Below, piece after piece: positions 16,508-59,639 of a DNA stretch of 64,000 nucleotides. The number at the start of each line of letters is the position of its first letter. Position 1 is the first letter of the stretch. The position numbers were made by a program, and so were the translations under genes. Source of the DNA: Candidatus Multivoradales bacterium (GTDB lineage: Bacteria; Acidobacteriota; Thermoanaerobaculia; Multivoradales; JAHEKO01). The stretch is from NCBI GenBank assembly GCA_965223855.1, contig CBDCXM010000002.1, positions 1-64,000 of the forward strand, read 5' to 3'. The notes beneath the pieces were generated by a model. The model made no database searches. It had not been told where the DNA came from and was given only the letters and a program-made list of their open reading frames with translations.

Positions 16508-16536
16508 GGTTTCGGTTTCCCGGTGAAGTGTGTCTA
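16508..16536 (+). promoter_or_regulatory. Putative ECF-type autoregulatory promoter
   Basis: GGTTTC-N17-TGTCTA ending 8 nt before the ECF sigma ATG at 16545. Confidence 0.4.
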
Positions 16537-16544
16537 ACTGGTAC

Positions 16545-17141
16545 ATGGAGAGCGCAACCGCCTTGCCGTCCCCAACGACAGACGCCCCAGCGGCCATGAG
16601 CCCCGATCGTGCCGAAGCTCTCTGGCCGCGGGCGGCGCAGGGCGACCGAAACGCCGCAGAAGAGCTGGCAGCGTGCACCTACCGGCTCGTCTACGCCTCC
16701 CTCGTCAAATTGAGCGGGGATCCGGACCTCGCCACCGACCTGACGCAGGAGACCTATCGCAAGGCCTGGGCCGCCCTACCGGACTTCCGCGGCAGGAGCG
16801 CCTTCGCGAGCTGGCTCTACCGGATCGCCTACACGACCTATCTCAACCATGTCCGGCGGCCGCAGCGGATGACGCCGCTCGACGAGAGGCAGGCGGAGCG
16901 ACTCTCCGATCCGCACGAACCCCCCGAAGACACGCTACGCCGCCGCGAGGAGGAAGCCGCCGTGCGCCGTGCCCTCACCACGCTGCCGGAGGAACTCGCC
17001 TTCGCCGTCACCGCCCGTTACTGGGGCGAGGTGCCGGTGCGCGAGATCGCCCGGGTACAGGACGTGAGCGAGGTGGCGGTGCGCAAGCGCCTGAAGAAGG
17101 CGCTCGGATTGCTCACCGTGGCGCTGGAGGATCAGAGATGA
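16545..17141 (+). CDS. ECF RNA polymerase sigma factor
   Basis: DLTQETYRKAW and FASWLYRIAY (region 2), plus HTH region 4 (VREIARVQDVSEVAVRKRL). Confidence 0.93.
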   Translation: MESATALPSPTTDAPAAMSPDRAEALWPRAAQGDRNAAEELAACTYRLVYASLVKLSGDPDLATDLTQETYRKAWAALPDFRGRSAFASWLYRIAYTTYLNHVRRPQRMTPLDERQAERLSDPHEPPEDTLRRREEEAAVRRALTTLPEELAFAVTARYWGEVPVREIARVQDVSEVAVRKRLKKALGLLTVALEDQR

Positions 17142-19582
17142 CCCGTATGGAAGACAACGTGCCGGACGAGCGCCGGACACAGGAGATGGAAGAGCGGCTC
17201 GAGCGCTTCACTGCGCCGGAGCCACCGGAAGGGCTGCTGGAGGCGATCCGGCAGGAAATCGACGATCACCTGCCGGAGCCCGTGAACGAGAATGGCGACG
17301 GTGGTGGTTTCCGCCATTGGAGACTGCTGGCGGCGTCGCTGGCGATCGCCGCCGTGGGAGCGTCGATCGCCTACCGGGTGAAGGTCGAGGGGCCGGCGTT
17401 GGACCAGCCGGCGGTCCCGGAGGCCGAGCTGGGAGCTGCGACGGTGCCGGAAGCGAGCGGGCAGGGTGAGAGGACGTCAGGTGAGAGGGAGTCGGGTGCT
17501 GCGACGTCCGTCGAGCTCGGCGATCCGTCTCAGGGCCGCGAGGTTTCTCTTCCGGGTAGGGAAGAGGCGAAGCCGCCGGAACCGGTGGTCTCGGATCACC
17601 AACTCAGGTCCGAGCTCCAGAGTCTCGGCTATCTCTCTCCGGACCCCCCTCCTTCGGCTGCGGCTCAGGTTGCCCCGGCCCCGCAGGAAGAGGCTGCGCG
17701 CGGCTCGCTCGAGATGAGGGTGCGCTCGCAGGACGGCTCGCCGCTGCCGGGAGCGACGGTAGTCCTCGACGCCGACGGCGAAACCCGTGTCGAGGTCTCC
17801 GATGCCGAGGGCAGGGTCGAGTTCGATGACGTACAGGCGGGTGAGCACAGCGTCTCGGCCGAACTCGGAGGCATGTCGAAGGTCGAGTACCCGAAGGTCA
17901 AGGTGGCCGAGGAACGCAAGACGAGGCTCGACGCGTCGATGCCTCCGGAGGTCGAGGAGACGATCACGGTGACTTCGGAGAGTCCGTTGCTTGACGAGAG
18001 GAACTCCTCGACCGTGGAGCCGCCCAAGCCCAAGCGAGTCGCACCGCTCACGGCGAACGACGGCATTGCTCGCAGGCTGCGCGAGGAGCCGTCGGCGGAT
18101 CTGGTCGCACCGCCGGTAGCACACATGGTTGCTCCCTCCACCGGCGGCACCGCCGAGCCCAACGAACAGCCCTACGGCGACATGTTCTTCGAGGGCTACG
18201 GCACCAACCCGTTCATCGATACCGAGGACGACGCGCTTTCGACCTTCGCTCTCGACGTCGACACCGGCTCCTACACCGTCGCCCGCAGCTATCTCGAGCG
18301 CGGTGAGCTGCCGCCTGCCGATGCGATCCGGGTCGAGGAGTTCGTCAACTACTTCGACTACGGCGACCCGGCGCCGGCGCGGCGCGATTTCGCCGCGGTC
18401 GTCGAGGGTGCGCCGTCTCCGTTCGCCTCGACCGCTCGCACCTGGCTGCTGCGCTTCGCTCTCAAGGGACGTGAGATTGACGTCTCGCGGCGCGCGCCGG
18501 CGGTGCTGACGTTCGTCGTCGACGTTTCTGGCTCGATGAACCGCGAGAACCGACTCGGACTCGTCAAGCGGGCGTTGCGGCTGCTGGTCGGTCAGCTCGA
18601 TCGTGGTGACGCCGTCGGACTGGTAGTCTACGGCAGCAGCGGGCAGGTGCTGCTGTCGCCGACCAACCACCACGAGCGGGTGCTGGCAGCGATCGACCGC
18701 CTCGTGCCGACCGGTGCCACCAACGCTGAGGAGGGGCTGGTGCTCGGCTACCGGGAGGCGCGGCGCGCCTTCGTGCCGGGGGCGATCAACCGCGTGATTC
18801 TGTGCTCGGACGGAGTCGCCAACGTCGGCGCCACCGGGCCGGACTCGATCCTCGAGCGGATCGGCCGCGAGGCGGATGAGGGGATCGAGCTCACCACGGT
18901 CGGTTTCGGCATGGGCAACTACAACGACGTGCTGATGGAGCAGCTCGCCGACAGAGGCGACGGCAACTACGCCTACGTCGACGATCTCGACGAGGCGCGC
19001 CGGGTGTTCGTCGAGAACCTCACCGGCACGCTCCAGACGATCGCCGGCGACGCCAAGGTGCAGGTCGAGTTCGAGCCGGGGATGGTGCAGAGCTACCGGC
19101 TGCTCGGCTACGAGAACCGCGACGTCGCCGATCGCGACTTCCGCAACGACGCCGTCGACGCGGGCGAGATCGGCGCCGGGCATCAGGTGACGGCGCTCTA
19201 CGAGGTCAAGCTGCGAGACGACGCGCCTCGTCGCGGCCGGCTGGCGACGATGCGGCTTCGCTACCGGTCGAAGGCGACCGGCAGCGTGGTCGAGGACTCG
19301 GTGGAGCTGGGTCGCGACGATCTGGTGCGACGGCCCGCCGCGGCTTCCGGAGGTTGGCGGCTCGCAGCAGTCGTCGCCGAGTTCGCCGAGGTGCTGCGCG
19401 GTTCCTACTGGGCTCGCGAGAGCGATCTCGGGTTGCTGGCGGCGACGGCGCGTGAGCTGAGTGCCGCCTCCGGGAGTCCGGAGACGCGTGAGTTGGCACG
19501 GTTGATCGAAACCGCTTCCCGGCTGCGCGCCGGTCGGCTGCGCGACGGCGGCGGGGGCGGAGCACCCGGGATCGAGCGCTGA
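17138..19582 (+). CDS. YfbK-like vWA protein with N-terminal anti-sigma-like segment, TM helix, carboxypeptidase-regulatory-like domain, vWF_A, VWA and DUF3520-like domains
   Basis: ATGA overlap with the sigma gene; STFALDVDTGSY, RVEEFVNYF, DVSGSM (MIDAS), SDGVANVG, GYENR and DAGEIGAGHQVTALYE motifs. Confidence 0.88.
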   Translation: MTRMEDNVPDERRTQEMEERLERFTAPEPPEGLLEAIRQEIDDHLPEPVNENGDGGGFRHWRLLAASLAIAAVGASIAYRVKVEGPALDQPAVPEAELGAATVPEASGQGERTSGERESGAATSVELGDPSQGREVSLPGREEAKPPEPVVSDHQLRSELQSLGYLSPDPPPSAAAQVAPAPQEEAARGSLEMRVRSQDGSPLPGATVVLDADGETRVEVSDAEGRVEFDDVQAGEHSVSAELGGMSKVEYPKVKVAEERKTRLDASMPPEVEETITVTSESPLLDERNSSTVEPPKPKRVAPLTANDGIARRLREEPSADLVAPPVAHMVAPSTGGTAEPNEQPYGDMFFEGYGTNPFIDTEDDALSTFALDVDTGSYTVARSYLERGELPPADAIRVEEFVNYFDYGDPAPARRDFAAVVEGAPSPFASTARTWLLRFALKGREIDVSRRAPAVLTFVVDVSGSMNRENRLGLVKRALRLLVGQLDRGDAVGLVVYGSSGQVLLSPTNHHERVLAAIDRLVPTGATNAEEGLVLGYREARRAFVPGAINRVILCSDGVANVGATGPDSILERIGREADEGIELTTVGFGMGNYNDVLMEQLADRGDGNYAYVDDLDEARRVFVENLTGTLQTIAGDAKVQVEFEPGMVQSYRLLGYENRDVADRDFRNDAVDAGEIGAGHQVTALYEVKLRDDAPRRGRLATMRLRYRSKATGSVVEDSVELGRDDLVRRPAAASGGWRLAAVVAEFAEVLRGSYWARESDLGLLAATARELSAASGSPETRELARLIETASRLRAGRLRDGGGGGAPGIER

Positions 19583-19610
19583 CCCGAGCGGGTCAAAGGA
19601 CGATCCCGCA

Positions 19611-19639
19611 GCCGGTCCTTCCCCTCGGGGAGGACCGGC
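19611..19639 (+). terminator. Stem-loop, probable intrinsic terminator of the sigma-vWA operon
   Basis: GCCGGTCCT/AGGACCGGC 9-bp stem extended by CCC/GGG, followed only by GTTCT (weak U tract). Confidence 0.55.
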
Positions 19640-19647
19640 GTTCTCCG

Positions 19648-19656
19648 TGCTAGCCT
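19648..19656 (+). promoter_or_regulatory. Extended -10 promoter element (TGnTAGCCT)
   Basis: TG-C-TAGCCT; the same hexamer occurs in the TTGACA-N17-TAGCCT promoter at 48102-48130. Confidence 0.5.
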
Positions 19657-19661
19657 GAACC

Positions 19662-19838
19662 TCTCGCGCCGGTGTGTCCTGGCAGGCCGCAGGTTGCTCG
19701 AGATACGAGGCTTCCGGTCGCGAGGACCGGAGAGATAGCCGCAGCTACGTCGAGGAGCGCAGTGGCCGGAAAACGCAGTAGATTCAGTGACATACGGCCG
19801 TCCTGGTGCAGTTGAACGAACCGTGCAGCGGTGTGAGA
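19662..19838 (+). ncRNA. Candidate rod-shaped structured RNA (6S RNA-like architecture)
   Basis: Hand folding: 19662-19677 pairs with 19823-19838; 19685-19698 pairs with 19786-19799; 13/14-nt central bubble; 19712-19721 pairs with 19762-19771; many G-U pairs favour the + strand. Confidence 0.45.
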
Positions 19839-19864
19839 AGCTCAGGCTGACCTGCCCGCGGGCC

Positions 19865-21292
19865 ATGCGGGCGGCTTTCAGCGGCGGGGTCCTGGCCGTC
19901 GCGCTCCCGCTCCTTGCGGCGGGGGAGCCCGCCGCGACCGGCGACGCTTCGATCCGCCTCCTCGAGCCGCCGATCGGCCTCCAGACGGGATCGCTCCGGG
20001 TCGGCGCCGTCGTCGAGGGGGCCGGCGTCGCGAGGGTCGAGTTCCTTCTCGACGGCAAGGTGGCGATGAGCAAGCTGCAGCCGCCCTACAGCGTGGTGTT
20101 GCAGCTCGGCGAGGCGCTGCGCCCGCGGAGGGTCACGGCGATCGCGCTCGATCACGAGCGCAACGAGCTGGCGCGGGACTCTCTCGAGATCAATCTCGGG
20201 CCGTTCCGTTTCGCCGTGCGGCTGATCGAGCCACAACCGACGACAACCTACGACGATACGGTACCGGTGCGCGCCGAGGTGACGCTGCCGGTCGGCGACG
20301 AGCTCGAGCGTGTCGACTTCCTGCTCGAAGAGGAGGTGGTCGCCTCGGTCGAGGGGCTCCGTCTGCGCGCCGAGATCGAGCTGCCCGAGTTCCGGCAGTC
20401 CACGTACGTCAGGGCGATCGCCTACCTGAAGGACGGTCGGTCTTCGGAAGATCTGGTGTTCGTCAATTCGCGTCTCGGGACGGAGAATCTGAAGGTCTCC
20501 TTCGTCGAGCTCTACACCACGGTGCTCGATCGCAAGCGCAAGCCGGTCGAGGGGGTGGCGCGCGAGGAGTTCGTCGTCGTCGAGGACGGTCAGCCGGTGA
20601 CGCTGCGTCGTTTCGAGCGGGTACTCGACCGCCAGGTCCATCTCGGCCTGCTGCTCGACACCTCGCTGTCGATGATCGAGGAGCTGCGCGAGACCCGCAA
20701 GGTGGCGGCCGGCTTCCTCGAGCGCCTGCTGCGGCCGCAGGACCGCGCGACGGTGATCGTCTTCTCCGACGAGCCGGAAGTGCGGGTGCCGTTCTCGAAC
20801 GACGCTGCGGCACTCTCCGAGGGGCTCGAGGGTCTCGAGGCTGTCGGGGAGACGACGTTGTGGGACAGCCTCGCCTTCAGCCTCTACTACTTCGGCGGCC
20901 TCAAGGGGAAGCGGGCGATCGTCGTCCTCACAGACGGCCAGGACTCGCGTAGCCACTTCGGCATCAGCGAGGTGATCGAGTACGCCCAGAGACTCGGGGT
21001 CGCCGTCTACCCGATCGCGGTCACCAGCTCAGGATCCTCGATCGATCGCCACGCCAAGGAGAGCGAGCGCCATCTGCGCAAACTGGCCACCGCGACCGGT
21101 GGCAGCGCCTTCTTCATCCAGCGGGCAAGCGGCATCGAGAAAGCCTACGAGCGCATCGAAGCCGAACTGCGGGCGCAGTACCTCCTCGGCTACCAGTCAC
21201 CCAACACCAGACCCGAAGGATTCCGCGAGGTCGAGGTGGAGCTGGTGACGAAGGGCCTTCAGGCAAGGACCATCCCGGGGTACCACCCGTAG
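19865..21292 (+). CDS. Secreted Ig-like + VWA domain protein (acidobacterial VWFA-related family)
   Basis: Signal-like N-terminus, two Ig-like repeats (RVEFLLDG, RVDFLLEE), VELYTTV, DTSLSM MIDAS, TDGQD and ELRAQYLLGY motifs. Confidence 0.85.
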   Translation: MRAAFSGGVLAVALPLLAAGEPAATGDASIRLLEPPIGLQTGSLRVGAVVEGAGVARVEFLLDGKVAMSKLQPPYSVVLQLGEALRPRRVTAIALDHERNELARDSLEINLGPFRFAVRLIEPQPTTTYDDTVPVRAEVTLPVGDELERVDFLLEEEVVASVEGLRLRAEIELPEFRQSTYVRAIAYLKDGRSSEDLVFVNSRLGTENLKVSFVELYTTVLDRKRKPVEGVAREEFVVVEDGQPVTLRRFERVLDRQVHLGLLLDTSLSMIEELRETRKVAAGFLERLLRPQDRATVIVFSDEPEVRVPFSNDAAALSEGLEGLEAVGETTLWDSLAFSLYYFGGLKGKRAIVVLTDGQDSRSHFGISEVIEYAQRLGVAVYPIAVTSSGSSIDRHAKESERHLRKLATATGGSAFFIQRASGIEKAYERIEAELRAQYLLGYQSPNTRPEGFREVEVELVTKGLQARTIPGYHP

Positions 21293-22534: not shown

Positions 22535-22626
22535 AGCCGACTACTCGGCTGGCACTCCGTGCCTGCACTCCATCCCGCACCAACTAGCCGCACCACTCGG
22601 CTGGCACTACGTACCCACTACGTACC
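22535..22626. repeat. REP-like hairpin direct repeats plus an 11-bp tandem duplication upstream of the RAYT
   Basis: AGCCGACTACTCGGCTGGCACT (22535-22556) and AGCCGCACCACTCGGCTGGCACT (22586-22608); CACTACGTACC x2 (22605-22626). Confidence 0.7.
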
Positions 22627-25117: not shown

Positions 25118-27025
25118 CTACCCTGAATGGCAGGCCTCGCAGGCGATCGGTGTGCCCGCGAAACGCCTGGCACCTGACGAGGACTCGGCGTGGCAGGCGG
25201 CGCACTCGGCTCTGCCGTGAGCGCCGGTGAGCGGGAACCTCGTGACGGCGTGGTCGAAGCTCACTTCGCCCCAGCCGTCGCTTCGATGGCACGAGGCGCA
25301 CCCGGCCTCGCGTCCGGCGAACTGGCCGTCGTGCGGGTCGTCGTGGCAACTCTCGCAGGCCGGGTCGACCGATAGCGCGAGGCGCAGGTCCGCGCTGCCC
25401 GCCGGCCTCGGACCGCGCGTTTCGAGGTGGCAATCGAGGCAGGCGGCTTCGGCATGCATCCCTTCCAGGGGGAAGCGGGTCGAGCCGTGGTCGAACGTGA
25501 GGAGTTCCCAGCCGTCGTTACCGTGGCACGAGGCGCAGCCACGCTCCGCCACGCGAGCCGTGCCGTCGTGGGGGTCCTCGTGGCAGCTCTCACACGAGAG
25601 ATCCTCGAACTGGAAGCGGCGGGTCGAGGCGAGGGCGCCGGCATTGGAGCGGAAGGTCGTCTCCCGGTGGCAGTCGGCGCAGGCGACCGCCTGATGGCGA
25701 CCCTCGAGTGCGAAGCCGGTCTGCTGGTGGTCGGCGAGCTCGAAGAGCGACGGGACGAATCCCTCGACGGTGTGGCACGAGGCACAGCTTCCGCCGTCGG
25801 CCCGTCGCCGGAACTGTCCGAGGTGCTCGTCCTCGTGGCAGGTCTCGCACCGCTCGGCGCCGGGGATGCGAAGCGGCTGACCGGGCCGGTGACACGACTC
25901 ACAGTCGACGGTTGCGTGAGCCCCGTCCAGCGGAAAGTCGGTCTGCGCGTGATCGAAGCGGTCGGCGGCGACGCGGTTCCAGCCGCGGGTGTCGTGGCAG
26001 TCGGCGCAGGCGGCCCCGAGCCGGCCTTCGTGGGGATCGCCGTGACAGTCGCTGCAGGCGGCGAAGACGACACCGCGGAACCGCTGCGGGTCTCCGCCGC
26101 TCGTGGCGGCCGCGGCGCCGTGGCACTCTGCGCAGCCGACCTGCCGGTGGCGGCCGGTGAGGGGGAAGCGAGTCCGGGCGTGATCGAAGCCCGGTGTCGA
26201 CTGCCAGGAATCGGTCGAGTGGCAGTCGGAGCAGGAGGGGCCCAGACCGCCTCGATGAGGGTCGGAGTGACAGGCGGCGCACTGCGCATGCTCCACCGGC
26301 CGGAAGCGCGTCACCGGTCCGCCTGCCGTCTCTTCGACCGCGTGACAGCGATCGCACTCGACGCGGGTGTGGGCCCCCGTCAAGGCGAAGGCCGCGCCCG
26401 AGTGGTCGAACGAGTCGGCGCCGGCGAAGGAGTCCATGCCGTGACAGGAGCTGCAGACGCGGCCCTCGAACTGCCCACGGTGCTCGTCCTCGTGGCAGGA
26501 AGCGCAACTCGCCGAGAGACCCAGCAGGGTCTTCTCGAGGGAGCGTCCGACGGCTCGCAGCGCGTCGGCGTCGGCGATGTTTTCCGGCCGATGGCAGGTC
26601 TGGCACTCGAGCGAGCCGTGGGCCCCCTCGAGCGGCCAGCCGGCCCGCGCATGATCGAAGGCATCTCTGCCCTCCGGCCCCCACCAGATGAGCTCGTACT
26701 CGCGCCCGTGGTGCTCGATGTGGCAGGTTCGGCACTCCTGGAAGCCGGGGTTGGCGTGGAGGCCACGGCCCGCCTCGATCCGCGCTTCGAGTACCTGGTG
26801 GCAGCTCAGACAGCGGTCCGCGTCGACTCCCTCTTCACGCGAATGACACTGCAGGCAGTTGCGACTGCCCTCGAGCTGCTCGTGGACGGCGCTGAGTTTG
26901 CCGGGCGAGATCTGTGCCTTGCTCGGCGAAGCGGCGGAAATGAGGGAGACGAGGAGCAGCGTCGCCGCGGCGAGAAGACTGGCTGCCGCCGGACGGGCTC
27001 TCCCCGGCGCGTCAGCCGAAGCCAT
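25118..27025 (-). CDS. Periplasmic multiheme cytochrome c (23 CxxCH)
   Basis: Signal peptide (SKA-QISPGKLS); 23 CxxCH counted by hand; repeated FDHxxxxFPLxGxH units. Confidence 0.93.
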   Translation of the reverse strand: MASADAPGRARPAAASLLAAATLLLVSLISAASPSKAQISPGKLSAVHEQLEGSRNCLQCHSREEGVDADRCLSCHQVLEARIEAGRGLHANPGFQECRTCHIEHHGREYELIWWGPEGRDAFDHARAGWPLEGAHGSLECQTCHRPENIADADALRAVGRSLEKTLLGLSASCASCHEDEHRGQFEGRVCSSCHGMDSFAGADSFDHSGAAFALTGAHTRVECDRCHAVEETAGGPVTRFRPVEHAQCAACHSDPHRGGLGPSCSDCHSTDSWQSTPGFDHARTRFPLTGRHRQVGCAECHGAAAATSGGDPQRFRGVVFAACSDCHGDPHEGRLGAACADCHDTRGWNRVAADRFDHAQTDFPLDGAHATVDCESCHRPGQPLRIPGAERCETCHEDEHLGQFRRRADGGSCASCHTVEGFVPSLFELADHQQTGFALEGRHQAVACADCHRETTFRSNAGALASTRRFQFEDLSCESCHEDPHDGTARVAERGCASCHGNDGWELLTFDHGSTRFPLEGMHAEAACLDCHLETRGPRPAGSADLRLALSVDPACESCHDDPHDGQFAGREAGCASCHRSDGWGEVSFDHAVTRFPLTGAHGRAECAACHAESSSGARRFAGTPIACEACHSG

Positions 27026-27920
27026 ACCCGGTCAGGGTGGCCACCGCGATGTGGATGGTGGCGAACAGGTACATCAGGATCGCGAACGGCTTGTGCAGCA
27101 CGTGCCAGTAGTGAAAGAGCTCCTGGAGCTTCGACCACAGGCGGATCCGTCGCTGGAGCATCGCGCTCTCCTCCAGCAGCCGGCTCAGGTGGCGTCGATG
27201 CTCGGCCGGCACTTCGGCTACCAGCGCCCGCACCTGCCGGCGGAGCCGGATACTGCCGAACGGCAAAGACAGGAGCGTGGAGAGCAGGGAGCGCCCGCCG
27301 GAGGCGGAGTCCTTCGCCAGCTTGTCGATCCGCTCGACCACGCCTACCGGAACGGCGCGCTCGGACGACAGTTCCTCCCTGAGTCGGTCGCGATAGCTCT
27401 CGACCTCGGAGAGGGAGAGCTGATCGCCCGACTGACGGCGTGGGAATTGAAGGTAGAGATAGCGACCGAGGATGCCGCTCGTGGCGACGATCACCATCGA
27501 CCAGAAACTCAGCGCCACGATGCCGGTGACCTTGAACGAACTGTGCAGCACGATCAGGAGCGGTCCCACGACTCCACACCAGATGTGAAAGTCGAGCCAA
27601 TGGCGGAGGGTGCCGAGTTTCGACAGCAGCTTCCAACGCTTGCGCAGCGAGTAGGAAAGCATGAGCGTCATCAGCCCCATGCCGATCATCCCGTAGGTCC
27701 GGCCCAGCGAACCGCCCGGCTTGAGCTGCCAGTAGAGTTCGTGGTGGGGCCGTTCGAGGAGCGGTGTGAGGTAGTAGTCCCACCCGTAGACGGTCAGGGC
27801 GGCGAACGCCATCAGGGAAGGGACGTAGAGCGCAGCCGGCCACAGGCCCCAACGTCGGGACGCCGGGCGAACGTCTCCGTCGGGCTTGGTGGACGGGATC
27901 TGTCGGGCGATTGACTCCAT
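27012..27920 (-). CDS. His-rich integral membrane protein, ferric-reductase-like/heme b-binding candidate
   Basis: About 6 TM helices; WLDFHIWCG, IVLHSSF, FHYWHVLHKPF and IHI motifs; overlaps the start of the cytochrome gene. Confidence 0.72.
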   Translation of the reverse strand: MESIARQIPSTKPDGDVRPASRRWGLWPAALYVPSLMAFAALTVYGWDYYLTPLLERPHHELYWQLKPGGSLGRTYGMIGMGLMTLMLSYSLRKRWKLLSKLGTLRHWLDFHIWCGVVGPLLIVLHSSFKVTGIVALSFWSMVIVATSGILGRYLYLQFPRRQSGDQLSLSEVESYRDRLREELSSERAVPVGVVERIDKLAKDSASGGRSLLSTLLSLPFGSIRLRRQVRALVAEVPAEHRRHLSRLLEESAMLQRRIRLWSKLQELFHYWHVLHKPFAILMYLFATIHIAVATLTGYGFG

Positions 27921-28035
27921 TTCGACGACTCGGGCGTTGACTATCATGCGCCGAATGAACGCCACATTACCGAAGGCAGGATCCTGTCGACGCAGTCATC
28001 CCCTTGTAACCCTGCGCAGGGCACGATTCGCCGCG

Positions 28036-29964
28036 ATGAGGGGAAGGCTCGACAGATCGGCTCTGCCGGAGGTGGTGGCGAAAGCGGGAGCGCTCGTGCT
28101 CCTCGCCCTGTGTCCTCTGCAGCCCTCGTCCGCTCAGGAGGCGCCCGCCTTCGACAATCCGCACGGCGACCTCTCCGTCTCCTGCGACGAGTGCCATACG
28201 ACCGACGGCTGGAAGCCGCTCGTCGAGCCGCTCGTGTTCGATCACGCTTCGACCGGCTTCGAGCTCGACTTCGGTCATCGCACCGTCGAGTGCCTCAGCT
28301 GTCACACCGAGCTGGTGTTCGCCAACGTCGGTACCGCCTGCGCCGACTGCCACCTCGATCCTCATCAGGGGGAGTTGGGCTTCGCCTGCGAGGATTGCCA
28401 CGAGTCCTCGAGCTGGGATCCGAGAGTCGACTTCGAGCTGTTCCACGACGCCACGCTCTTCCCTCTGACCGGCGCCCACGAAGTGATCGACTGCATCGCC
28501 TGTCATTCGGAAGCGTCGCCGTTCGAGTTCCAGTTGACCCCGACGGAGTGCTTCCTCTGCCACATCGACGACTACCAGAGCGCCGAGCTCGACCATGTGG
28601 AGCTCGGCTTTCCGACGAGCTGCGAGGACTGCCACCGAACCGATGCGTGGCAGCCGGCGATGATCGACGGCGGCAACTTCGACCACGATCTGTTCTTCCC
28701 GCTGCGGGGCGCGCACGAGGTTCTCGACTGCTCCGATTGCCACATCGGAGGTTTCGGCGACACGCCCAACGAGTGCATCGGCTGCCATCTTGCCGACTAC
28801 GAGGGGGTCGACGATCCCGACCACGTGGCGCTCGGCTTTCCGACGATGTGCGAGAACTGCCACAGCACGACGACCTGGGAGGGAGCGATCGAGGTCGATC
28901 ACGAGGAGTTCTTCCCGCTCAGAGGCGTCCACGCGGTGCTCGACTGCCAGGAGTGTCACGCCGACGGTTTCGAGGGCACTCCGACCGATTGCGTCGACTG
29001 TCATCTGGACGACTACCAGGCGACCAACGACCCGAATCACGTCGAGGCCGGCTTCAGCCGCATGTGCGAGGACTGCCACAACGAGTCGAGCTGGGAAGAC
29101 GCGACCATCGACCACGACGCGTTCTTCCCGCTGACCGGCGCTCACCGTCCGCTCGACTGCGAGGCGTGCCATGCCGAGGGCTTCTCGGGTACGCCGACCG
29201 ACTGCGTCTCCTGTCACCTGGACGACTACAACGCCACCGAAGATCCCGACCATCGCGCCTCCGGCTTCCCGACGATGTGTGAGGACTGTCACTCGACCTC
29301 GAACTGGGAAGACGCGATCTTCGACCACGACTCGGTCTTCCGTCTGACGGGCGCCCACCGCGCTCTCGACTGCGAGGAGTGCCATGCCGACGGCTTCGAC
29401 GGCACGCCGCGCGACTGCGCCGGATGTCACCTCGACGACTACAACGCGACCGACGACCCCGATCATCAGGCGTCCGGTTTCCCGACGATGTGCGAGGAGT
29501 GCCACAACACCACCGACTGGGAAGACGCGGACTTCGACCACGACGCCGTCTTCCAGCTCACCGGCGCTCACCGGGCTCTCGACTGCGAGGCATGCCACGC
29601 CGAGGGCTTCGACGGCACGCCGCGTGACTGCGTCGGCTGTCACCTGGACGACTACAACCAGACCGACGATCCGGATCACGACGCCGCCGGCTTCCCGACG
29701 ATGTGCGAGGACTGCCACAACACGTCGGATTGGGACGACGCCGACTTCGACCACGACAGCCTCTTCTTCCCGATCTTCAGCGGTTCGCACGCCGGCGAGT
29801 GGGACGACTGCACCGACTGTCACGTCGATCCCGGCAATTTCGCCGTGTTCGACTGCACCGTCTGTCACGACCAGGCGGACATGGACGACGAGCACGACGA
29901 CGTCGACGACTACGTCTACAGCAGCCCCGCCTGCCTGAGCTGCCACCCGGATGGCGAGGAGTGA
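28036..29964 (+). CDS. Exported, highly acidic multiheme cytochrome c (25 CxxCH)
   Basis: Signal peptide (SSA-QEA); 25 CxxCH counted by hand; tandem 71-aa 3-heme repeats. Confidence 0.93.
   Translation: MRGRLDRSALPEVVAKAGALVLLALCPLQPSSAQEAPAFDNPHGDLSVSCDECHTTDGWKPLVEPLVFDHASTGFELDFGHRTVECLSCHTELVFANVGTACADCHLDPHQGELGFACEDCHESSSWDPRVDFELFHDATLFPLTGAHEVIDCIACHSEASPFEFQLTPTECFLCHIDDYQSAELDHVELGFPTSCEDCHRTDAWQPAMIDGGNFDHDLFFPLRGAHEVLDCSDCHIGGFGDTPNECIGCHLADYEGVDDPDHVALGFPTMCENCHSTTTWEGAIEVDHEEFFPLRGVHAVLDCQECHADGFEGTPTDCVDCHLDDYQATNDPNHVEAGFSRMCEDCHNESSWEDATIDHDAFFPLTGAHRPLDCEACHAEGFSGTPTDCVSCHLDDYNATEDPDHRASGFPTMCEDCHSTSNWEDAIFDHDSVFRLTGAHRALDCEECHADGFDGTPRDCAGCHLDDYNATDDPDHQASGFPTMCEECHNTTDWEDADFDHDAVFQLTGAHRALDCEACHAEGFDGTPRDCVGCHLDDYNQTDDPDHDAAGFPTMCEDCHNTSDWDDADFDHDSLFFPIFSGSHAGEWDDCTDCHVDPGNFAVFDCTVCHDQADMDDEHDDVDDYVYSSPACLSCHPDGEE
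28678..29760 (+). repeat. Intragenic tandem repeat, 213-bp period (about 5 units)
   Basis: Unit starts (F/V/I-D-H codons) at 28678, 28894, 29107, 29320, 29533 and 29746. Confidence 0.9.
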
Positions 29965-37330: not shown

Positions 37331-37428
37331 GGGGCCGCGATGAGGGCGTTTGACTCTCCGCGAGGGCGCTGCTCTACTGCCTGAAGGCGCGCCGTGCCGC
37401 CCCGGTCCTGCGAAGAGCCGGGCTCTCG

Positions 37429-38940
37429 GTGCGGAAGGAAACAGCAGAGTCGAGCCCAGCCGTGCCGCCCACGACCGAACTCATCGCTTCCCTCACCGCG
37501 GTCCCAGACGGGAAGGTGTTGCAGCGCCTCTCCGATCAGGTCGATTGGCTGGAGGTGCGTGCCGACCTGGTGGAGGGGATCGATCCGGCGTGGCTGCGGC
37601 AGAGCTTCCAGGGGCGCCTTCTCTACACCTATCGCAGCCGCGTGGATGGCGGCGAGGGCGCGGTGGGAGGCGAAGAGCGCCGGCGGCGGTTGGTCAGCGC
37701 CGTCGAGTCGTACGACCTCGTCGATCTCGAACTGCGGGATCTCGAGCCGGCGACTCTCGGTGCGATCCCTGCGGCGAAGCGTCTCATCTCCTGGCATGGC
37801 TCGGCCGATAGTGTCGAGGAGCTCGGCGGCCACCTGGAAAGGCTGCGCGAGCATCAGGCTCACTGGTACAAGCTGGTGCCGTGGGTCGACAACAGCGGTC
37901 CGGACCGCTGGCCGCTCATCCTGCTCAAGCAGCGAGGGCGCGGCGATCTCATCTCGTTCGCGGCCGGCACCGGAGCCACCTGGACCCGACTGCTGTCGGC
38001 ACACCTCGGGGCTCCAGCGATGTTCGTGGCCGCGGGGGAGGAGCTGGCGGCTCCCGGTCAGCTTCCGGTCGATCGGCTGATCCGGGAGTACGGCTGGCCG
38101 CTGCCCGAAAGGCTGACGGCGCTCTTCGGCGTCGTCGGCAATCCCGTCGGGCAGAGCCTTTCGCCCTGCATTCACAATCGGGCACTGCGCCGGGAGGGTC
38201 TGCCGGGCCTGTACCTGCCGTTTCATGTCGAGCACTTCGGAGACTTCTGGCTCGAGGTGGTCGAGGAGGGTGGATTCAGCGAAGCGGGCTGCGTCCTGCG
38301 GGGCCTCAGCATCACTGCGCCGGCAAAGAAGATCGCGATGGCGGTTGCGGGAGCCACCAGCCCGCTGGCGGAACGCATTGCGAGCGCCAACACGATGCTC
38401 TTCCGCGACGGAGTCTGGGAGGCCGATTCCACCGATCCGGAGGGGGTGCTCGGTCCGCTGCGTCGCCGCCGGATCGGGGTGCGCGACCGCGCCTGTGCGG
38501 TGCTGGGTGCAGGTGGTGCCGGGCGGGCAGCGGCCTTTGCTCTCTCGGAGGTCGGCGGCCGGGTCACGATCTTCAACCGTGGGGAGGGTCGCGGTCGCAG
38601 GGCCGCGGAGCTACTGAAGCTCCCCTGGGCTCTCTACGACGAGTTCGATCCGGCTGACTTCGACGTCGTCGTGCAGGCGACTTCGCTGGGTCGAAGCGAT
38701 GCCGATCCGTTGCCGTCCGACCCGACTCGCCTGCCCGAGGGTGCCGTCGGGATCGACCTCGTCTACCGGCGCGGCCGACCGACTCCGTGGGTTCACGCCC
38801 TCCGGGAGTGCGGGCATACGGCGATCGATGGCCGTGAGGTCCTGCTGCACCAGGCGGTGCCCCAGTTTGCGGCGATGACCGGTCGCGAGATGCCCTCGGA
38901 GCTGGTGGCCGAGCTGCTCGAAGAGATGAACTCGCTGTGA
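37429..38940 (+). CDS. Bifunctional type I 3-dehydroquinate dehydratase / shikimate dehydrogenase (AroD-AroE fusion)
   Basis: LEVRAD, TYRS..DGG, ISWH and YKLV (DHQase I); SLSP, ITAPAK, ANT, TD, GAGGAGRA and DGREVLLHQA (SDH). Confidence 0.85.
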   Translation: MRKETAESSPAVPPTTELIASLTAVPDGKVLQRLSDQVDWLEVRADLVEGIDPAWLRQSFQGRLLYTYRSRVDGGEGAVGGEERRRRLVSAVESYDLVDLELRDLEPATLGAIPAAKRLISWHGSADSVEELGGHLERLREHQAHWYKLVPWVDNSGPDRWPLILLKQRGRGDLISFAAGTGATWTRLLSAHLGAPAMFVAAGEELAAPGQLPVDRLIREYGWPLPERLTALFGVVGNPVGQSLSPCIHNRALRREGLPGLYLPFHVEHFGDFWLEVVEEGGFSEAGCVLRGLSITAPAKKIAMAVAGATSPLAERIASANTMLFRDGVWEADSTDPEGVLGPLRRRRIGVRDRACAVLGAGGAGRAAAFALSEVGGRVTIFNRGEGRGRRAAELLKLPWALYDEFDPADFDVVVQATSLGRSDADPLPSDPTRLPEGAVGIDLVYRRGRPTPWVHALRECGHTAIDGREVLLHQAVPQFAAMTGREMPSELVAELLEEMNSL

Positions 38941-40364
38941 AGCGGCGTCGGGCGACGCCCCGCGTCCGGGAGTTCGTGGCCGACGGTCTCACCCCGCTCG
39001 CCGCCTACGGCCGCCTGGCCGCGGATCAGCCGCGCTTCCTGTTCGAGAGCGTGACCGGAGGCGAGCAGGTGTCGCGCTACAGCTTCCTCGGCGTCGCGAC
39101 CGGCCCGGTCGTTCGAGTCTCCAGCGAGGGGATCGAGATCTCGCAGAACGGTGAGACCGAGTTTCACGAGGGAGACACGTTGGCTCACCTGCGTCGGCAA
39201 CTCGGCTCGGTCGTGGCCGAGCCCGGGTCGATCCCGTTCCTGGGCGGCTATGTCGGTTACTTCGGCTACGACATGGTGCGCCTCGCCGAGCCGAGCCTCG
39301 GTGCCCCACCTTCCGACGACTTCGGGTTGCCGCTCGCCGTTCTGGCGAGGGTCGACTCTCTGCTCGTCTTCGATCACGCCCGGCAACGCCTTCTCGCGGT
39401 CGCGAACGAGATCGAAGGGGAGGTCGATGCGGCGAGTGCGGGGCGTCGGCTCGACGATCTGACCCGGCTGCTCGAGCGGCCCGTGTCGGCGCGTGCCTCG
39501 CGCCTGCCGGAGGCTCCCGCGATCGAGACGCTCCCCGAGGCGAGCCTGTCGCGTTCCGACTACCGATCGGGCGTCGGCGAGATTCAGGAGGCGATCGCGG
39601 CGGGGGAGATCTTCCAGGCGGTGCTCGCCCGGCGCTTCGATCTCGGGAAGGCCGAAGACCCGGTTCGTCTCTACCGGGCGCTGCGAGTCGTCAATCCGAG
39701 CCCCTACATGGTGCTGCTCGAGCTGCCCGAGCTCGCTCTGGTCGGGGCGAGCCCCGAGGCTCTGGTGCGCAAGAGCGGAAGTCGGATCGAGACCCGTCCG
39801 ATCGCCGGAACGAGGCCGCGCGGTGCGACGCCCGAGCAGGACGAGGCTCTGGCCCTTGAACTGTTGGCCGACCGCAAGGAGAGGGCCGAGCACGTGATGC
39901 TCGTCGATCTGGGTCGCAACGACCTCGGGCGGGTCGCCGTGCCCGGAAGTGTCGAAGTGCGGGGTCTCATGGAGGTCGAGCGCTACAGCCACGTCATGCA
40001 TCTGTGCACCAGCGTGGTGGGGGAGCTGTCGGCGGAACACGACGCTCTCGACCTCCTCCTGGCCTGCTTTCCCGCGGGCACGGTCTCGGGCGCACCCAAG
40101 CTGAGGGCGATCGAGATTCTGGATCGACTCGAGCCCGAAGCTCGCGGCCCGTACGCAGGAGCGATCGGCTATCTCTCCTTCGCCGGCGACCTCGATGCCT
40201 GCATTACGATTCGCACGCTGGTGTCGCATCGTGGCCGGCTGTCGGTGACGGCAGGGGCGGGCATCGTCGCCGACTCTGTTGCCGAGAGCGAGGTCGCAGA
40301 GACCGAGAGCAAGGCCGCCGCCCTCCTGGCCGCCGTCCGGACGGCGCGAAGGTTCCCGACATGA
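38937..40364 (+). CDS. trpE: Anthranilate synthase component I
   Basis: FESV..RYSF, NPSPYM, GASPE, PIAGTRPRG, KERAEHVMLVDLGRND and PAGTVSGAPK motifs. Confidence 0.95.
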   Translation: MKRRRATPRVREFVADGLTPLAAYGRLAADQPRFLFESVTGGEQVSRYSFLGVATGPVVRVSSEGIEISQNGETEFHEGDTLAHLRRQLGSVVAEPGSIPFLGGYVGYFGYDMVRLAEPSLGAPPSDDFGLPLAVLARVDSLLVFDHARQRLLAVANEIEGEVDAASAGRRLDDLTRLLERPVSARASRLPEAPAIETLPEASLSRSDYRSGVGEIQEAIAAGEIFQAVLARRFDLGKAEDPVRLYRALRVVNPSPYMVLLELPELALVGASPEALVRKSGSRIETRPIAGTRPRGATPEQDEALALELLADRKERAEHVMLVDLGRNDLGRVAVPGSVEVRGLMEVERYSHVMHLCTSVVGELSAEHDALDLLLACFPAGTVSGAPKLRAIEILDRLEPEARGPYAGAIGYLSFAGDLDACITIRTLVSHRGRLSVTAGAGIVADSVAESEVAETESKAAALLAAVRTARRFPT

Positions 40365-40933
40365 TCCTGATGATCGACAACTACGACTCCTTCACCTACA
40401 ACCTGGTGCAGGAGTTCCTCAAGGCCGGGGCCGCCGTCGAGGTTGTGCGCAACGACGAGGCCTCGGTCGCCGAGCTACTGGCGCTGGAGCCCGCCGGCAT
40501 CGTGCTGTCGCCCGGTCCCGGCCGCCCGGAGGACGCCGGGATCTGTCTCGAGTTGATTCATGCGCGGCCTCGCGGGCCGCTGCTGGGAGTGTGCCTAGGT
40601 CATCAGGCGCTCGGCGAGGCGTTCGGTGGTCGCGTGGAACAGGCGCCTCAGCTCGTACACGGCAAGACCTCGAGGGTGCTTCATGAGGGGGAGGGGATCT
40701 TCCGTGGCCTGGAGGTGCCCTTCGAGGCGACCCGGTACCACAGCCTCACGGTGGCACCGGAGTCGCTGCCGGCCCAGCTCGAACCGCTGGCGTGGACCGA
40801 AGAGCGCGTGCTGATGGGGATGCGGCATCGGAGCCTCCCGTACTGGGGCGTGCAGTTCCACCCCGAGTCGGTGCTGACTCTGGAGGGTCCGAAGCTTCTG
40901 CACAACTTCCTCGAGGAGTGCCGCGGTGGGTGA
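40361..40933 (+). CDS. trpG: Anthranilate synthase component II (glutamine amidotransferase)
   Basis: IDNYDSFTYNL, SPGPG, GVCLGHQ, RYHSL and QFHPES motifs. Confidence 0.95.
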   Translation: MILMIDNYDSFTYNLVQEFLKAGAAVEVVRNDEASVAELLALEPAGIVLSPGPGRPEDAGICLELIHARPRGPLLGVCLGHQALGEAFGGRVEQAPQLVHGKTSRVLHEGEGIFRGLEVPFEATRYHSLTVAPESLPAQLEPLAWTEERVLMGMRHRSLPYWGVQFHPESVLTLEGPKLLHNFLEECRGG

Positions 40934-41972
40934 GGGCGCCACGGGGCTCTCGAGCCGCGAGATGCTCCATCGGCTGATCGCGCGGCAGGACCTCTCGCGA
41001 ACCGAGGTCGAGGAACTGTTCGGCCGGCTCATGGACGGAGAGTTCGACGAGCCGACGAAGGCGGCGCTGTTGATGGGGTTGGCCGTCAAGGGGGAGACCG
41101 CCGAGGAGATCGCCGGTGCGGCCGCCGCGATGCGCCGCCGGGTGATCGCCATCGAGCACGATCGGACCGATGCCATCGACACCTGCGGTACCGGGGGTGA
41201 CGGAAAGGGGACCTTCAACATCTCGACGGCGGCAGCCCTGGTTGCGGCCGCCGCCGGTGCGCCGGTCGCCAAGCACGGTAACCGTTCTGTTTCGAGCCGC
41301 TCCGGCAGTGCCGACGTACTGGCGGCGCTCGGTGTCGACGTTGCGGCTCCGCCCGAAACGGCCGGCAGGGCGCTGGACGAGATCGGCCTCGCTTTTCTGT
41401 TCGCGCCGACCCTCCATCCGGCGATGCGCGAGGTGATGCCGGTGCGGCAGGCGCTCGGCGTGCGGACGGTGTTCAATCTGCTCGGACCGCTGACGAACCC
41501 CGCCGGCGCGGGGAGGCAGCTGCTGGGGGTGTTCGCGCGCGAGCGGGTGAGGACCCTGGCGGAGGTGCTGCTGGCGCTCGGCAGCACGCGCGCGATGGTG
41601 GTTCACGGCGCCGACGGCCTCGACGAGATCACGCTGACCGGAGAGACCTACGTCGCCGAAGTGGTCGACGGCACGGTGCGGGAATCGGTCCTCTCTCCGT
41701 CCCGGTTCGGTCTCGATCCCGTGGCGCCGGAGTCGTTGGCGGGTGGGACTCCAGACGAGAACGCCGCCTCGCTGCAGCGAGTCCTCGAGGGTGAGGCCGG
41801 AGCGCGGCGTGACATCACGGTTGCCAACGCCGCCGCCGCTCTGGTCGTCGCAGGGATCGCTGGCGACCTCCTCGACGGTGTCGAGCGGGCGCGACGAGCG
41901 CTCGATGGCGGCGCGGCCCTGGCGAAGCTCGAGGCGCTCCGCGACCTCTACGCCCGCGCTTCTCCGGACTGA
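40926..41972 (+). CDS. trpD: Anthranilate phosphoribosyltransferase
   Basis: DTCGTGGDG, NIST, KHGNRSVSSRSGSAD, RTVFNLLGPL and GLDE motifs. Confidence 0.96.
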   Translation: MGEGATGLSSREMLHRLIARQDLSRTEVEELFGRLMDGEFDEPTKAALLMGLAVKGETAEEIAGAAAAMRRRVIAIEHDRTDAIDTCGTGGDGKGTFNISTAAALVAAAAGAPVAKHGNRSVSSRSGSADVLAALGVDVAAPPETAGRALDEIGLAFLFAPTLHPAMREVMPVRQALGVRTVFNLLGPLTNPAGAGRQLLGVFARERVRTLAEVLLALGSTRAMVVHGADGLDEITLTGETYVAEVVDGTVRESVLSPSRFGLDPVAPESLAGGTPDENAASLQRVLEGEAGARRDITVANAAAALVVAGIAGDLLDGVERARRALDGGAALAKLEALRDLYARASPD

Positions 41973-41977
41973 GACCG

Positions 41978-42751
41978 ATGAGCGAGCTTCCCGACATCCT
42001 CGCCCGGATCGTCGAACGGCGGCGCCTGCGGCTCACCGAGGCCGACCGGGCGCCCGAGACCGGCCGACCGGACGCCTACCGACACCGCCCTTTCGCCGCC
42101 GCTCTGTCGGCGGGAGGACGCCGCATCATTGCCGAGGTCAAGATGGGGTCTCCCCGGTTGGGGTCCCTCGTCGGCGTGATCGATCCCGACTCCCAGGCAC
42201 GCGTGTACGCCCAGGAGGGTGCAGCGGCGCTGTCGGTGGTGGTCGAACCGGACTTCTTCCACGGCAGCTACGACCTGCTCGAGAGGTGTCGAGAGGTGTC
42301 CGGCCTGCCGACGATCGCCAAGGACTTCGTCGTCGATCGCCGCCAACTCCTCTGGGCCCGCGACGCCGGTGCCGACGCGGTGCTGCTGATCGCGGCGCTC
42401 CTCGATCGGGAACGACTGACTGAGCTGTCCGCCGAGGCCCGCGAACTCGGCCTCGAGTTCCTGATCGAGACCCACGACCGAGCCGATCTCGAGGTGTTGG
42501 GGGCCGAGCCTTGGCCGCTCGTCGGAGTGAACAACCGGGATCTGAGGACGTTCGACGTCGATCTGGAGAACTCCGAGGCGATGGTGACCGAACTGCCGGC
42601 TTCGGCGGTCAAGGTGGCGGAGAGCGGATTGCGAAGCGCCGCCGACCTCGACCGTCTGGAAGCGGCCGGTTTCGACGCCTTCCTCATCGGCGAGTCGTTG
42701 CTCACTGCGGACGATCCGAGGGCGCTCCTGCGCTCCCTCCTGGGCTGCTAG
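41978..42751 (+). CDS. trpC: Indole-3-glycerol phosphate synthase
   Basis: IIAEVK.GSP, KDF, GADAVLLI, GVNNRDL, AESG and LIGESL motifs. Confidence 0.95.
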   Translation: MSELPDILARIVERRRLRLTEADRAPETGRPDAYRHRPFAAALSAGGRRIIAEVKMGSPRLGSLVGVIDPDSQARVYAQEGAAALSVVVEPDFFHGSYDLLERCREVSGLPTIAKDFVVDRRQLLWARDAGADAVLLIAALLDRERLTELSAEARELGLEFLIETHDRADLEVLGAEPWPLVGVNNRDLRTFDVDLENSEAMVTELPASAVKVAESGLRSAADLDRLEAAGFDAFLIGESLLTADDPRALLRSLLGC

Positions 42752-42761
42752 ATTGCGCGGC

Positions 42762-43457
42762 ATGGCGAATCGGATCACTCCGGCCGGTCGGGTCAAAGTC
42801 TGCGGCGTGACGCGGGCCGAGGACGCAGTTAGTTGCATGGAGCTGGGTGTCGACTGGCTGGGTCTCAACTTCTGGCCGGGGAGCGTTCGCGCGGTGCCGG
42901 TCGAAAGGGCGAGGGCGATCGCCGATGCGGTGCGGGGTCGCATGGGGCTCGTCGGCGTCTTCGTCGATCACTCGCGCGACGAGGTCGAGTCGATCGCCCG
43001 TGATGTGGGGCTCGACTGGCTGCAGTTCCACGGCGACGAGCCGGACGACTACGTGCGCGCGTTCGGCGACCGGGCTCTCAAGGCGGTCCGGTTGACCGCC
43101 GAGTTGTCCGGGGAACACGCTTCGAGCGGGCAGATCGACTGGGACGCGAGATTCCCGGAGGCGTGGGGCTTCCTGTTCGAGAGCGCGACGGCGGGCGGCT
43201 ATGGCGGCCTCGGGAAGTCGTGGGACTACGGCGCTCTGGCGGGGAGGCGCCCGGCGCGCCCGACCCTGATCGCCGGAGGAATCACTCCCGCTACGGCGGC
43301 GGCAGCGCTCGAATCGAGCGGCGCCGACGGCGTCGACGTGGCGAGCGGCGTCGAGAGCGAGCCGGGGATCAAGGATCCGGCTGCCGTCGCCGAACTGGTC
43401 GCGGCCGTCAGGGCGGTCGCCGGTCCCGGCACGAGTCATCGGAGGGCGGCGAGGTGA
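42762..43457 (+). CDS. trpF: Phosphoribosylanthranilate isomerase
   Basis: VKVCGVT, VGVFVD, QFHGDE, AGGI and DVASGVE motifs. Confidence 0.93.
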
Positions 43458-44662: not shown

Positions 44663-45497
44663 GTTCGAACGTGTCTTCGAGCGCTGTGCACGGGAGAAGA
44701 GAGCGGCATTCATCCCTTACCTGACGGCGGGAGATCCCGACCTCGAGACCAGCGTCGGGCTCATCGACGCCGTCGTCGAGGCGGGGGCCGACATCCTCGA
44801 GCTCGGTGTGCCCTTCAGCGACCCGATCGCCGACGGGCCGGTGAACCAGCGCTCCGCGGTTCGGGCGCTCCGGAGCGGCACGACCGTCGCCGGCGTGCTC
44901 GAGCTGGTGGCGAAGGTGCGGGAGCGTCACGATCTGCCGATCGTGCTCTTCTCCTACCTCAACCCCCTGCTCGCACGGGGGATCGACACCTTCGCCCGGA
45001 GGGCGGCCGCCTCGGGCGTCGATGGGGTGCTCTGTCTCGACCTGCCGCCGGAGGAGGCCGCGTCAGGCAGCTCTGGCAGCTCAGGCGGCTATCTCGAGGC
45101 GATGCGCGCCGCCGGGGTGGCCACGGTCTTTCTCCTGGCACCGACCAGTACGAGGGAACGCATCCGACGGGTGAACGAGGTCAGCGAGGGCTTCGTCTAC
45201 TACGTCGCCCGAACCGGAGTGACCGGCGATCGCAGCGAGCTGCCCCCGGGCCTAGTGAAGGAGGTCAGGAGGCTGCGGCGCCGACTCGATCTGCCGCTGG
45301 CGGTGGGATTCGGCCTCTCGACCCCGGAGCACATGGCGGCCGTTGGTTCGGTGGCGCAGGGGGTGGTCGTCGGCAGCGCGCTGGTCAGGCTGGTCGAGCA
45401 GCACGGGCGCCAGGCCGCGCAACCGCTGAGGGAGGCGGCCGGTGCGTTGCGAGCGGGCCTCGAAGCGCGCGGGCGCAGGGGAAGGTCGGCCCGATGA
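44655..45497 (+). CDS. trpA: Tryptophan synthase alpha chain
   Basis: [32 protein letters not shown] and VGSA motifs. Confidence 0.96.
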
Positions 45498-59409: not shown

Positions 59410-59639
59410 CCGGGTCCTGTGTCGGTGCGGGTCGTCGGTGAAGCCGGGTAAGGAGGGCTCCGGGTTCCGGCACGGGTCGGTGCGGGTTCTCCGGTGCGGG
59501 TGGTGCCGGCTCGGCCGCGAGAAGCAGCGCCGAGCCGATGGCGCGCGCAGGCTAGCACAGCCTTCCCCGTCTCCCGGCGCTGGTTGCGGAGCCCTTGCTG
59601 GCGAGAGTCCCGGTGGGTTGCTACCATCGACGGCCATCG

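Follow-up and report, generated by a model that had tools for sequence, protein, structure and literature searches.

In the 64,000-nucleotide stretch of DNA analyzed here, which is referred to as the window, a gene for an ECF-type sigma factor is followed on the same strand by an 814-aa gene that overlaps its stop codon, by a noncoding spacer, and by a VWA-domain gene (Table 1). The sigma factor gene matched the NCBIfam model TIGR02937 with 86.5 bits (cutoff, 42.9), and the VWA gene, whose product begins at ATG 19865-19867 with a signal-peptide-like segment, matched TIGR03436 with 163 bits (cutoff, 81). Those relatives of the VWA gene that carried names belonged to Acidobacteriota or Thermoanaerobaculia. 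The window is GC-rich, and the nearest named relatives of its proteins lie in the class Thermoanaerobaculia of the Acidobacteriota. By its position, the 814-aa gene (17138-19582, plus strand) could encode an anti-sigma-like partner of the ECF sigma factor; no anti-sigma domain was detected in it. An earlier note on this DNA, made from the sequence alone, had described a rod-shaped RNA in the spacer (here called the rod), lying behind a promoter of its own and possibly related to 6S RNA. The 814-aa gene is the upstream neighbor of the rod.

Downstream of the VWA gene, on the opposite strand and 1.7 kb from the rod, lies a Y1_Tnp/RAYT-like gene, homologues of which were found at none of the 80 VWA-relative loci described below (the best 80 of 97). 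Two copies of ACTCGGCTGGCACT, ~51 nt apart at 22543-22607 and upstream of the Y1_Tnp-like gene, may be REP-like. The window also contains two large multihaem cytochrome c genes with Cytochrome_C7, c3, and MtrC/MtrF-like domains (25118-27025, minus strand, and 27886-29964, plus strand), which enclose a 317-aa membrane-protein-like open reading frame (ORF) without a Pfam match. A plus-strand run of aromatic amino acid genes at 37354-45497, including those for dehydroquinase/shikimate dehydrogenase, anthranilate synthase I, anthranilate phosphoribosyltransferase, a tryptophan synthase beta-like protein, and tryptophan synthase alpha, indicates that the window is ordinary chromosome.

Table 1. Genes and sequence features at and around the spacer, in window coordinates
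Feature	Position	Strand	Basis or properties
ECF-type sigma factor gene	16530..17141	+	Pfam Sigma70_r2, r4_2; NCBIfam sigma70-ECF TIGR02937
814-aa gene, CarboxypepD_reg + vWF_A + VWA + YfbK_C	17138..19582	+	Pfam
Spacer, 814-aa gene to VWA gene	19583-19864		282 nt
GC-rich hairpin, terminator-like without a U tract	19611..19639	+	Inverted repeat; dG -27.8, z -4.6
Conserved box CGTGCTAGCCTG, resembling an extended -10 (TGn + TAGCCT)	19646..19657	+	Invariant core in relatives
Left terminal inverted repeat	19652..19674	+	Inverted-repeat search, 23-nt arm
Rod core as first drawn	19662..19838	+	MFE -74.8 kcal/mol, 58 pairs (9 G-U), z -2.12, 5/200 shuffles as good
Right terminal inverted repeat	19826..19848	+	Inverted-repeat search, 23-nt arm
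Decayed direct box copy CAGGCTGACCTG	19843..19854	+	MAFFT sets it under the box of L001-L003
Hairpin enclosing VWA start codon	19846..19882	+	dG -24.6, z -2.49, 4/200 shuffles as good
VWA-domain gene, 475 aa, acidobacterial VWFA family	19865..21292	+	Pfam VWA, VWA_2, Big_7; TIGR03436
Y1_Tnp/RAYT-like gene, 304 aa	21575-22489	-	Pfam 25 bits; NCBIfam 39 bits, cutoff 80

The first feature of the spacer is a GC-rich hairpin, which sits 3' of the 814-aa gene and has 13-nt arms with 92% complementarity. It had been taken for a terminator ahead of the rod's promoter; the hairpin is indeed strong, but it has no U tract, and a terminator scan returned no site. A sigma-70 promoter scan returned no site either; because the scanning tool looks for a pair of hexamers and a T run, it is unable to judge an extended -10 element.

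Comparison with related loci

An alignment of 17 VWA proteins was used as the query of a genome contig collection, which yielded 97 confirmed relatives; the best 80 loci were kept. A homologue of the YfbK-like 814-aa gene, with 73 to 78% identity, was found upstream of the VWA gene in only 3 of these 80 loci (L001, L002, and L003; best 80 of 97), in which the VWA proteins were 72, 62, and 60% identical, respectively, to that of the window. With author-chosen start codons, the spacers of L001, L002, and L003 were 79, 61, and 113 nt long versus 282 nt in the window. Each of the three spacers had its own, different GC-rich hairpin at the place of 19611-19639, and the hairpin was followed by CGTGCTAGCCT, the core of a box that is present once in each relative. 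The rod was absent from the site in all three. From TAGCCT to the first suitable in-frame ATG, the distance was 11 nt in L001, 12 nt in L002, and 11 nt in L003 versus 208 nt in the window; the window therefore holds ~197 extra nt, which are placed exactly between the box and the VWA ATG.

Conserved homologues, which had been anticipated for a functional RNA, were absent from the three syntenic loci as well as from all 80 loci (best 80 of 97), and the window spacer had no match in these 80 by blastn or nhmmer. The search for the rod in relatives covered these loci (822 kb). Recombination between the repeats that flank the extra DNA may instead have caused a loss in the three relatives, in place of a gain in the window.

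The box shared with the relatives

The box that the earlier note read as an extended -10 element (TGcTAGCCT) was confirmed as TGCTAGCCT at 19648-19656, and its CGTGCTAGCCT core was invariant in all three relatives that share the gene order, that is, at four sites when the window is included. A slightly different stretch, GTGCTAGCCT, is common to five sites in four genomes, namely, these four and positions 59548-59558 of the window (minus strand). No TGCTAGCCT occurred in the other 77 loci (of the best 80 of 97), and near-matches to the 9-mer box showed no enrichment (5 found versus 6.7 expected). In the relatives, the box may be read as an extended -10 element from which the VWA mRNA would start almost without a leader. 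An equally possible role is that of a site recognized for integration. The GTGCTAGCCT box can be used to map promoters or sites of integration in the clade.

The minus-strand copy at 59548-59558, a second exact occurrence of GTGCTAGCCTG, lies ~140 nt upstream of a sulfatase gene (minus strand, starting near 59408), in the divergent spacer between that gene and a Ser/Thr kinase gene, and is followed by three CCCGCACCG repeats. No rod was detected downstream of this second box (z -0.51).

Anatomy of the extra DNA

The extra segment is an imperfect palindrome, and its ends are 23-nt terminal inverted repeats, 18/23 (78%) complementary and 151 nt apart. The decayed copy of the box, CAGGCTGACCTG, is in direct orientation; the intact box lies 197 nt upstream of it and the VWA ATG 10 nt downstream. 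Compared without gaps, CGTGCTAGCCTG and CAGGCTGACCTG are identical at 8 of 12 positions; a gapped option, 19649-19662 against 19840-19853, agrees in 12 of 15 columns with 2 gaps in the author's reading by eye. The boundaries of the segment are ambiguous by ~10 nt. Of the two box copies, the left is better kept and could still serve as a promoter. G+C content was 0.59 to 0.66 inside the segment and at least 0.70 in the flanks.

The ~197 bp carried no coding signal and contained only stop-to-stop frames of up to 67 aa, whose translations had no relatives except one protein, P0076, that is itself a read-through (see below). No GGAGG-like or other Shine-Dalgarno-like sequence was found before the VWA ATG, and the decayed box copy on the right contributes part of the hairpin that encloses the AUG (-24.6 kcal/mol).

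Folding of the rod

The minimum free energy (MFE) fold of 19662-19838 was the rod as the earlier note had drawn it, with the listed pairings and the 10-bp terminal helix. Its helices include GGCCG/CGGCC, GGUUGC/GUGACA, the 10-bp UUCCGGUCGC/GUGGCCGGAA, and an apical UAGC/GCUA hairpin, and the right arm carries a side hairpin. A central bubble of 13 and 14 nt had also been proposed (19699-19711 and 19772-19785); it was open in the centroid but partly paired in the MFE fold. The suggested alternative local fold was recovered as a CCGGUC/GACCGG hairpin at 19712-19732 (dG -13.8), and GGCAGG at 19681-86 can pair with CCUGCC at 19851-56.

Two properties given in the earlier note changed when the full palindrome was considered. 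Pairing does not begin at the expected +1 but runs outward to 19651-19849 (AGCCUGA/UCAGGCU), which places most of the proposed -10 hexamer inside a helix; a transcript begun near 19662 would lack this outer helix. The plus-strand preference, attributed to selection on the RNA, was present in the 177-nt cut (z -2.12 versus -0.28 on the minus strand) but was lost in the full 201-nt palindrome, which folds equally on both strands (z -2.98 on the plus strand and -2.97 on the minus strand). Arm against arm, the full palindrome has 60 Watson-Crick columns, 7 G.U columns on the plus strand, and 5 columns that are A.C on the plus strand and G.U on the minus strand.

The fold of the rod, which in the 177-nt cut was better than most shuffles (z -2.12, 5/200 as good), was ordinary against the background of the window itself. 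This background comprised 3192 subwindows of 200 nt (both strands, step 40), with MFE regressed on base composition. The best-phased rod subwindow ranked 82/3192 in folding energy (z -2.09 on the plus strand and -2.15 on the minus strand), and the rod's chain of 62 nested pairs was reached by 1.3% of the 200-nt subwindows. The fold of the rod is only weakly above chance. A control stretch covered by long ORFs, 63690-63970, gave a shuffle z of -2.76 and a regressed z of approximately -3.5. On both strands, few folds in the window are more stable than that of 63690-63970.

No Rfam family was matched at the gathering score in the whole 64-kb window. At E<=10, the region 19500-19950 gave three unrelated weak matches and no 6S family. 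In shape, the rod with its internal loops was compatible with 6S RNA but unspecific, as 1.3% of windows were equally rod-like.

Search for further copies

Comparison of the spacer with the 64-kb window (blastn-short and blastn) returned the self match and chance words of up to 18 nt, and no further copies were found in the 64-kb window or in the 822 kb of related loci. Against plasmids (blastn, 'distant'), the segment gave one 37-nt chance match, in Natrinema (E 0.01); against phages, it gave none. A single-sequence covariance model, R1, for which the same window stretch was entered twice as an alignment, was run over the window and the 80 loci (886 kb) and detected no second rod. The best non-self match of R1, L007 928-1054 on the minus strand (27.5 bits, E 0.009), was rejected as a copy on the grounds that it had no sequence similarity to the rod (score 40 versus 30 +/- 5.4 for shuffles, with a maximum of 54). 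This L007 feature is a near-perfect 127-nt hairpin between convergent ORFs on a Thermoanaerobaculia chromosome (dG -82.6); it may act as a terminator in both directions or represent a palindromic element of recent origin. Its z of -7.5 illustrates a strong palindrome.

One minus-strand frame is open through the segment, and its translation, P0073, was searched against 1.84 billion representative proteins. Two proteins, P0075 and P0076, were matched. P0075, a 326-aa ORF of about five tandem 65-aa (195-nt) repeats on a 115-kb ENA contig, was judged a chance match; its score was the sum over the five tandem repeat copies, and the best single stretch reached 29 bits. P0076 is a 293-aa singleton on a 3319-nt ENA contig; its first part is MutS domain V, beyond which the frame continues into nongenic sequence. 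P0073 and P0076 were identical at 29 of 54 residues without a gap (library-wide E 8e-5; author's BLAST-type whole-library estimate, ~0.03) and at 38 of 76 when the window flanks were added, and the score of 128 compares with 32.7 +/- 5.5 for composition-matched shuffles. The translation of a second minus-strand frame, P0074, had no matches, and P0076 residues 190-293, used as a query, found only P0076 itself.

The read-through of P0076 is probably a second copy of the segment in another context, inferred from a protein translation at borderline significance; given the whole-library estimate, the match is less than certain. If the match is real, then the segment is present in another genome beside a convergent mutS, with a different right-hand context. 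P0076 carries RLAR and RLAP where two box positions would fall, 180 nt apart, and these residues would fit a box on both sides of the mutS-adjacent copy. The point is a weak one because RLA occurs four times in P0076 (flank match, roughly p 0.02).

P0076 was back-translated under minimal change, and 67 rod pairs were compared, 27 of which were without data. The 40 judged pairs comprised 26 without any change, 6 preserved despite a one-sided change, 5 broken, and 3 ambiguous; 3 of the 6 one-sided pairs are G.U in the window and inferred Watson-Crick pairs in the P0076 copy. Covariation, which a selected RNA structure had been expected to leave, amounted to no compensatory pair change in these 40 pairs against the one putative copy. 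Nor were the inferred changes significantly depleted in stems (17/72 paired versus 11/32 unpaired positions, p 0.34).

Discussion

The rod-shaped "RNA" is most likely a piece of inserted hairpin-forming DNA, probably a mobile-element relic that is read as a long leader. Its absence from the relatives and its position, wedged between the conserved box and the VWA gene, argue for such a relic and not for a 6S-type regulator, and inverted ends, a flanking direct repeat, a lack of coding capacity, and filled and empty sites are together the marks of an insertion like that of a miniature inverted-repeat element (MITE) or of a small integrated element. Three MITE features were found, namely, a small noncoding size (~197 bp), terminal inverted repeats, and filled versus empty sites. 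The candidate target-site duplication, formed by the left-hand CGTGCTAGCCTG and the right-hand CAGGCTGACCTG, is imperfect (8/12). In the search for a parent insertion sequence with the same ends, none of the 38 window ORFs scanned with Pfam encoded a DDE transposase; the sole transposase-like gene among these ORFs, the Y1_Tnp-like gene, shares no sequence with the rod. The reading that the rod is a MITE-like or site-specifically integrated foldback element, now cotranscribed with the VWA gene as a structured leader at the 5' end of its mRNA, is given a probability of roughly 0.47.

If the rod is such a foldback element, then ~185 to 197 bp (roughly 19652/58 to 19842/48) would have entered the lineage between CGTGCTAGCCTG and the VWA start codon, moved by an enzyme encoded elsewhere (in trans) and landing at the box. 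In the window, the intact left box would then direct a transcription start near 19663 and read-through of the segment into the VWA gene. The VWA mRNA would carry a ~200-nt leader folding as a long imperfect duplex, and its AUG, without a Shine-Dalgarno-like sequence, would lie inside the -24.6 kcal/mol hairpin. VWA expression would be expected to be altered, probably lowered or made processing dependent, an effect for which the RNase III-bound Correia hairpins are a precedent. The second option of the earlier note, a leader of the VWA gene, is retained as to position, where the rod is a 5' leader. An insertion of this kind would be a case of a small foldback element separating a nearly leaderless start codon from its promoter in a barely studied, uncultured acidobacterial lineage, and it would offer a natural experiment on how nearly leaderless genes tolerate a long structured leader.

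The extra DNA may alternatively be lineage-specific spacer of no particular origin, with the fold, the inverted ends, and the flanking repeat all due to chance in DNA of 63 to 70% G+C and with P0076 a false positive. This origin is unlikely, if the least so of the alternatives. The rank of the rod (82/3192), the frequency of equally long nested chains (~1.3% of windows), the z of -2.76 in ORF-covered DNA, the 8/12 direct repeat, the borderline significance of P0076, and the lack of a further copy in the window, the 80 loci, plasmids, and phages all fit it. Under chance, however, three features would have to coincide: a 23-nt inverted repeat, a flanking copy of the box whose distance from the ATG is the ancestral one, and a stretch of 54 residues that match collinearly without a gap. 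The presence of 197 extra nt at precisely this point, downstream of the box and upstream of the ATG, would still need some event to explain it.

That the rod is a separate small RNA gene driven by an extended -10 element of its own (6S-like, Ms1-like, or of another class) is quite improbable. Transcription of such an RNA would start at about 19663, and its 3' end would be set by processing or by the hairpin at 19846-19882. The intact box lies directly upstream, the inner helix begins at approximately the expected +1, the 177-nt cut folds better on the plus strand, and the overall shape would suit a small RNA, with a closing stem that leads through internal loops to a 10-bp inner stem and a small apex. 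The putative mutS-adjacent copy, which may also adjoin a box, is unable to be a VWA leader because mutS is convergent. Moreover, 6S-type RNAs can escape the 6S model, as in the case of Ms1, which is described as structurally related to 6S RNA yet distinct (PMC9130861). Against a small RNA gene stand the lack of any relevant Rfam match, 6S or other, at E<=10; the absence of the rod from 3/3 relatives, in which the box serves the VWA gene; pairing that reaches into the -10 element itself; equal stability of the two strands; the lack of a U-tract terminator; 0 compensatory and 5 broken pairs among the 40 judged against P0076; and a fold that is unexceptional for the window. In particular, the paralog of 6S RNA with its own promoter that had been proposed is not supported, given that no Rfam family matched, that the rod is missing from all three relatives, and that the box there is the VWA gene's.

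A mobile, promoter-seeking module is a comparably doubtful extension of the insertion idea. In that case, a ~185-nt foldback element would integrate site specifically into GTGCTAGCCT, leaving a box on both sides, and would add a leader to genes or spread a small RNA. As part of the same proposal, it would either turn nearly leaderless genes into genes with long structured leaders or spread a box-driven structured small RNA in Thermoanaerobaculia-like genomes.

A cis-regulatory VWA leader that evolved within the lineage (a thermosensor or a ligand- or protein-binding switch), alternating between the rod and local hairpins and so freeing or hiding the start codon, would account for the rod's place between promoter box and ATG, for the alternative hairpins (19712-19732 and GGCAGG/CCUGCC), and for the AUG inside a stable hairpin, but it is the least probable of these readings, as the relatives' VWA gene has an 11- to 12-nt spacing and no leader, no Rfam riboswitch or leader family was matched, the putative second copy adjoins a convergent mutS and not a VWA gene, no covariation was found, and the inverted and direct repeats indicate insertion, not gradual evolution of a leader.

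Resemblance to known RNAs and elements

The rod resembles 6S RNA (RF00013) and Ms1 in its size of ~180 nt, its predicted rod shape with internal loops, and the -10-like box upstream. It differs from 6S RNA in having no covariance-model match, no conservation at the locus, and no clean bubble, and in being flanked by inverted and direct repeats within a full palindrome that has no strand preference. The retrieved portions of the literature on miniature inverted-repeat elements or 6S RNA in Acidobacteria contained nothing on this element. For RNA discovery in GC-rich genomes, the case suggests caution: what looks like a convincing 6S-type rod downstream of a real promoter may prove to be inserted DNA that folds no better than the local background.

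Among mobile elements, REPIN/REP doublets (RAYT) are similar as long hairpin-forming intergenic repeats, and a Y1_Tnp/RAYT-like gene lies 1.7 kb away. The rod has about twice the usual REPIN length, and HUH enzymes leave no target duplication. A link to REPIN/RAYT was rejected, since the rod and the flanks of the Y1 gene have no sequence in common. The match of that gene to the RAYT model, at 39 bits, falls short of the cutoff of 80.

The ERIC/IRU sequences of enterobacteria are many-copy families of imperfect palindromes of ~127 bp in transcribed intergenic regions; they form long RNA hairpins that affect mRNA stability and can be present or absent at one locus among related species. The window element shares with them the transcribed intergenic palindrome and the presence or absence at a locus and differs from them in size, sequence, and hosts.

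The Correia elements (CREE) of Neisseria duplicate TA on insertion, are 100 to 155 bp long, and occur in hundreds of copies. Like the window element, they are small and noncoding, have inverted-repeat ends, and lie between promoters and genes; their presence varies among related genomes, and they are cotranscribed as hairpins and can change the expression of the adjacent gene. The window element differs in having one known copy, or perhaps two, in having a ~12-nt flanking repeat that contains the conserved box, and in its host, a Thermoanaerobaculia-like acidobacterium; no sequence kinship is expected. According to one report, either end of a CREE can give rise to a promoter, and the elements can bind IHF as well as RNase III, with cleavage or protection as the outcome (PMC2649163).
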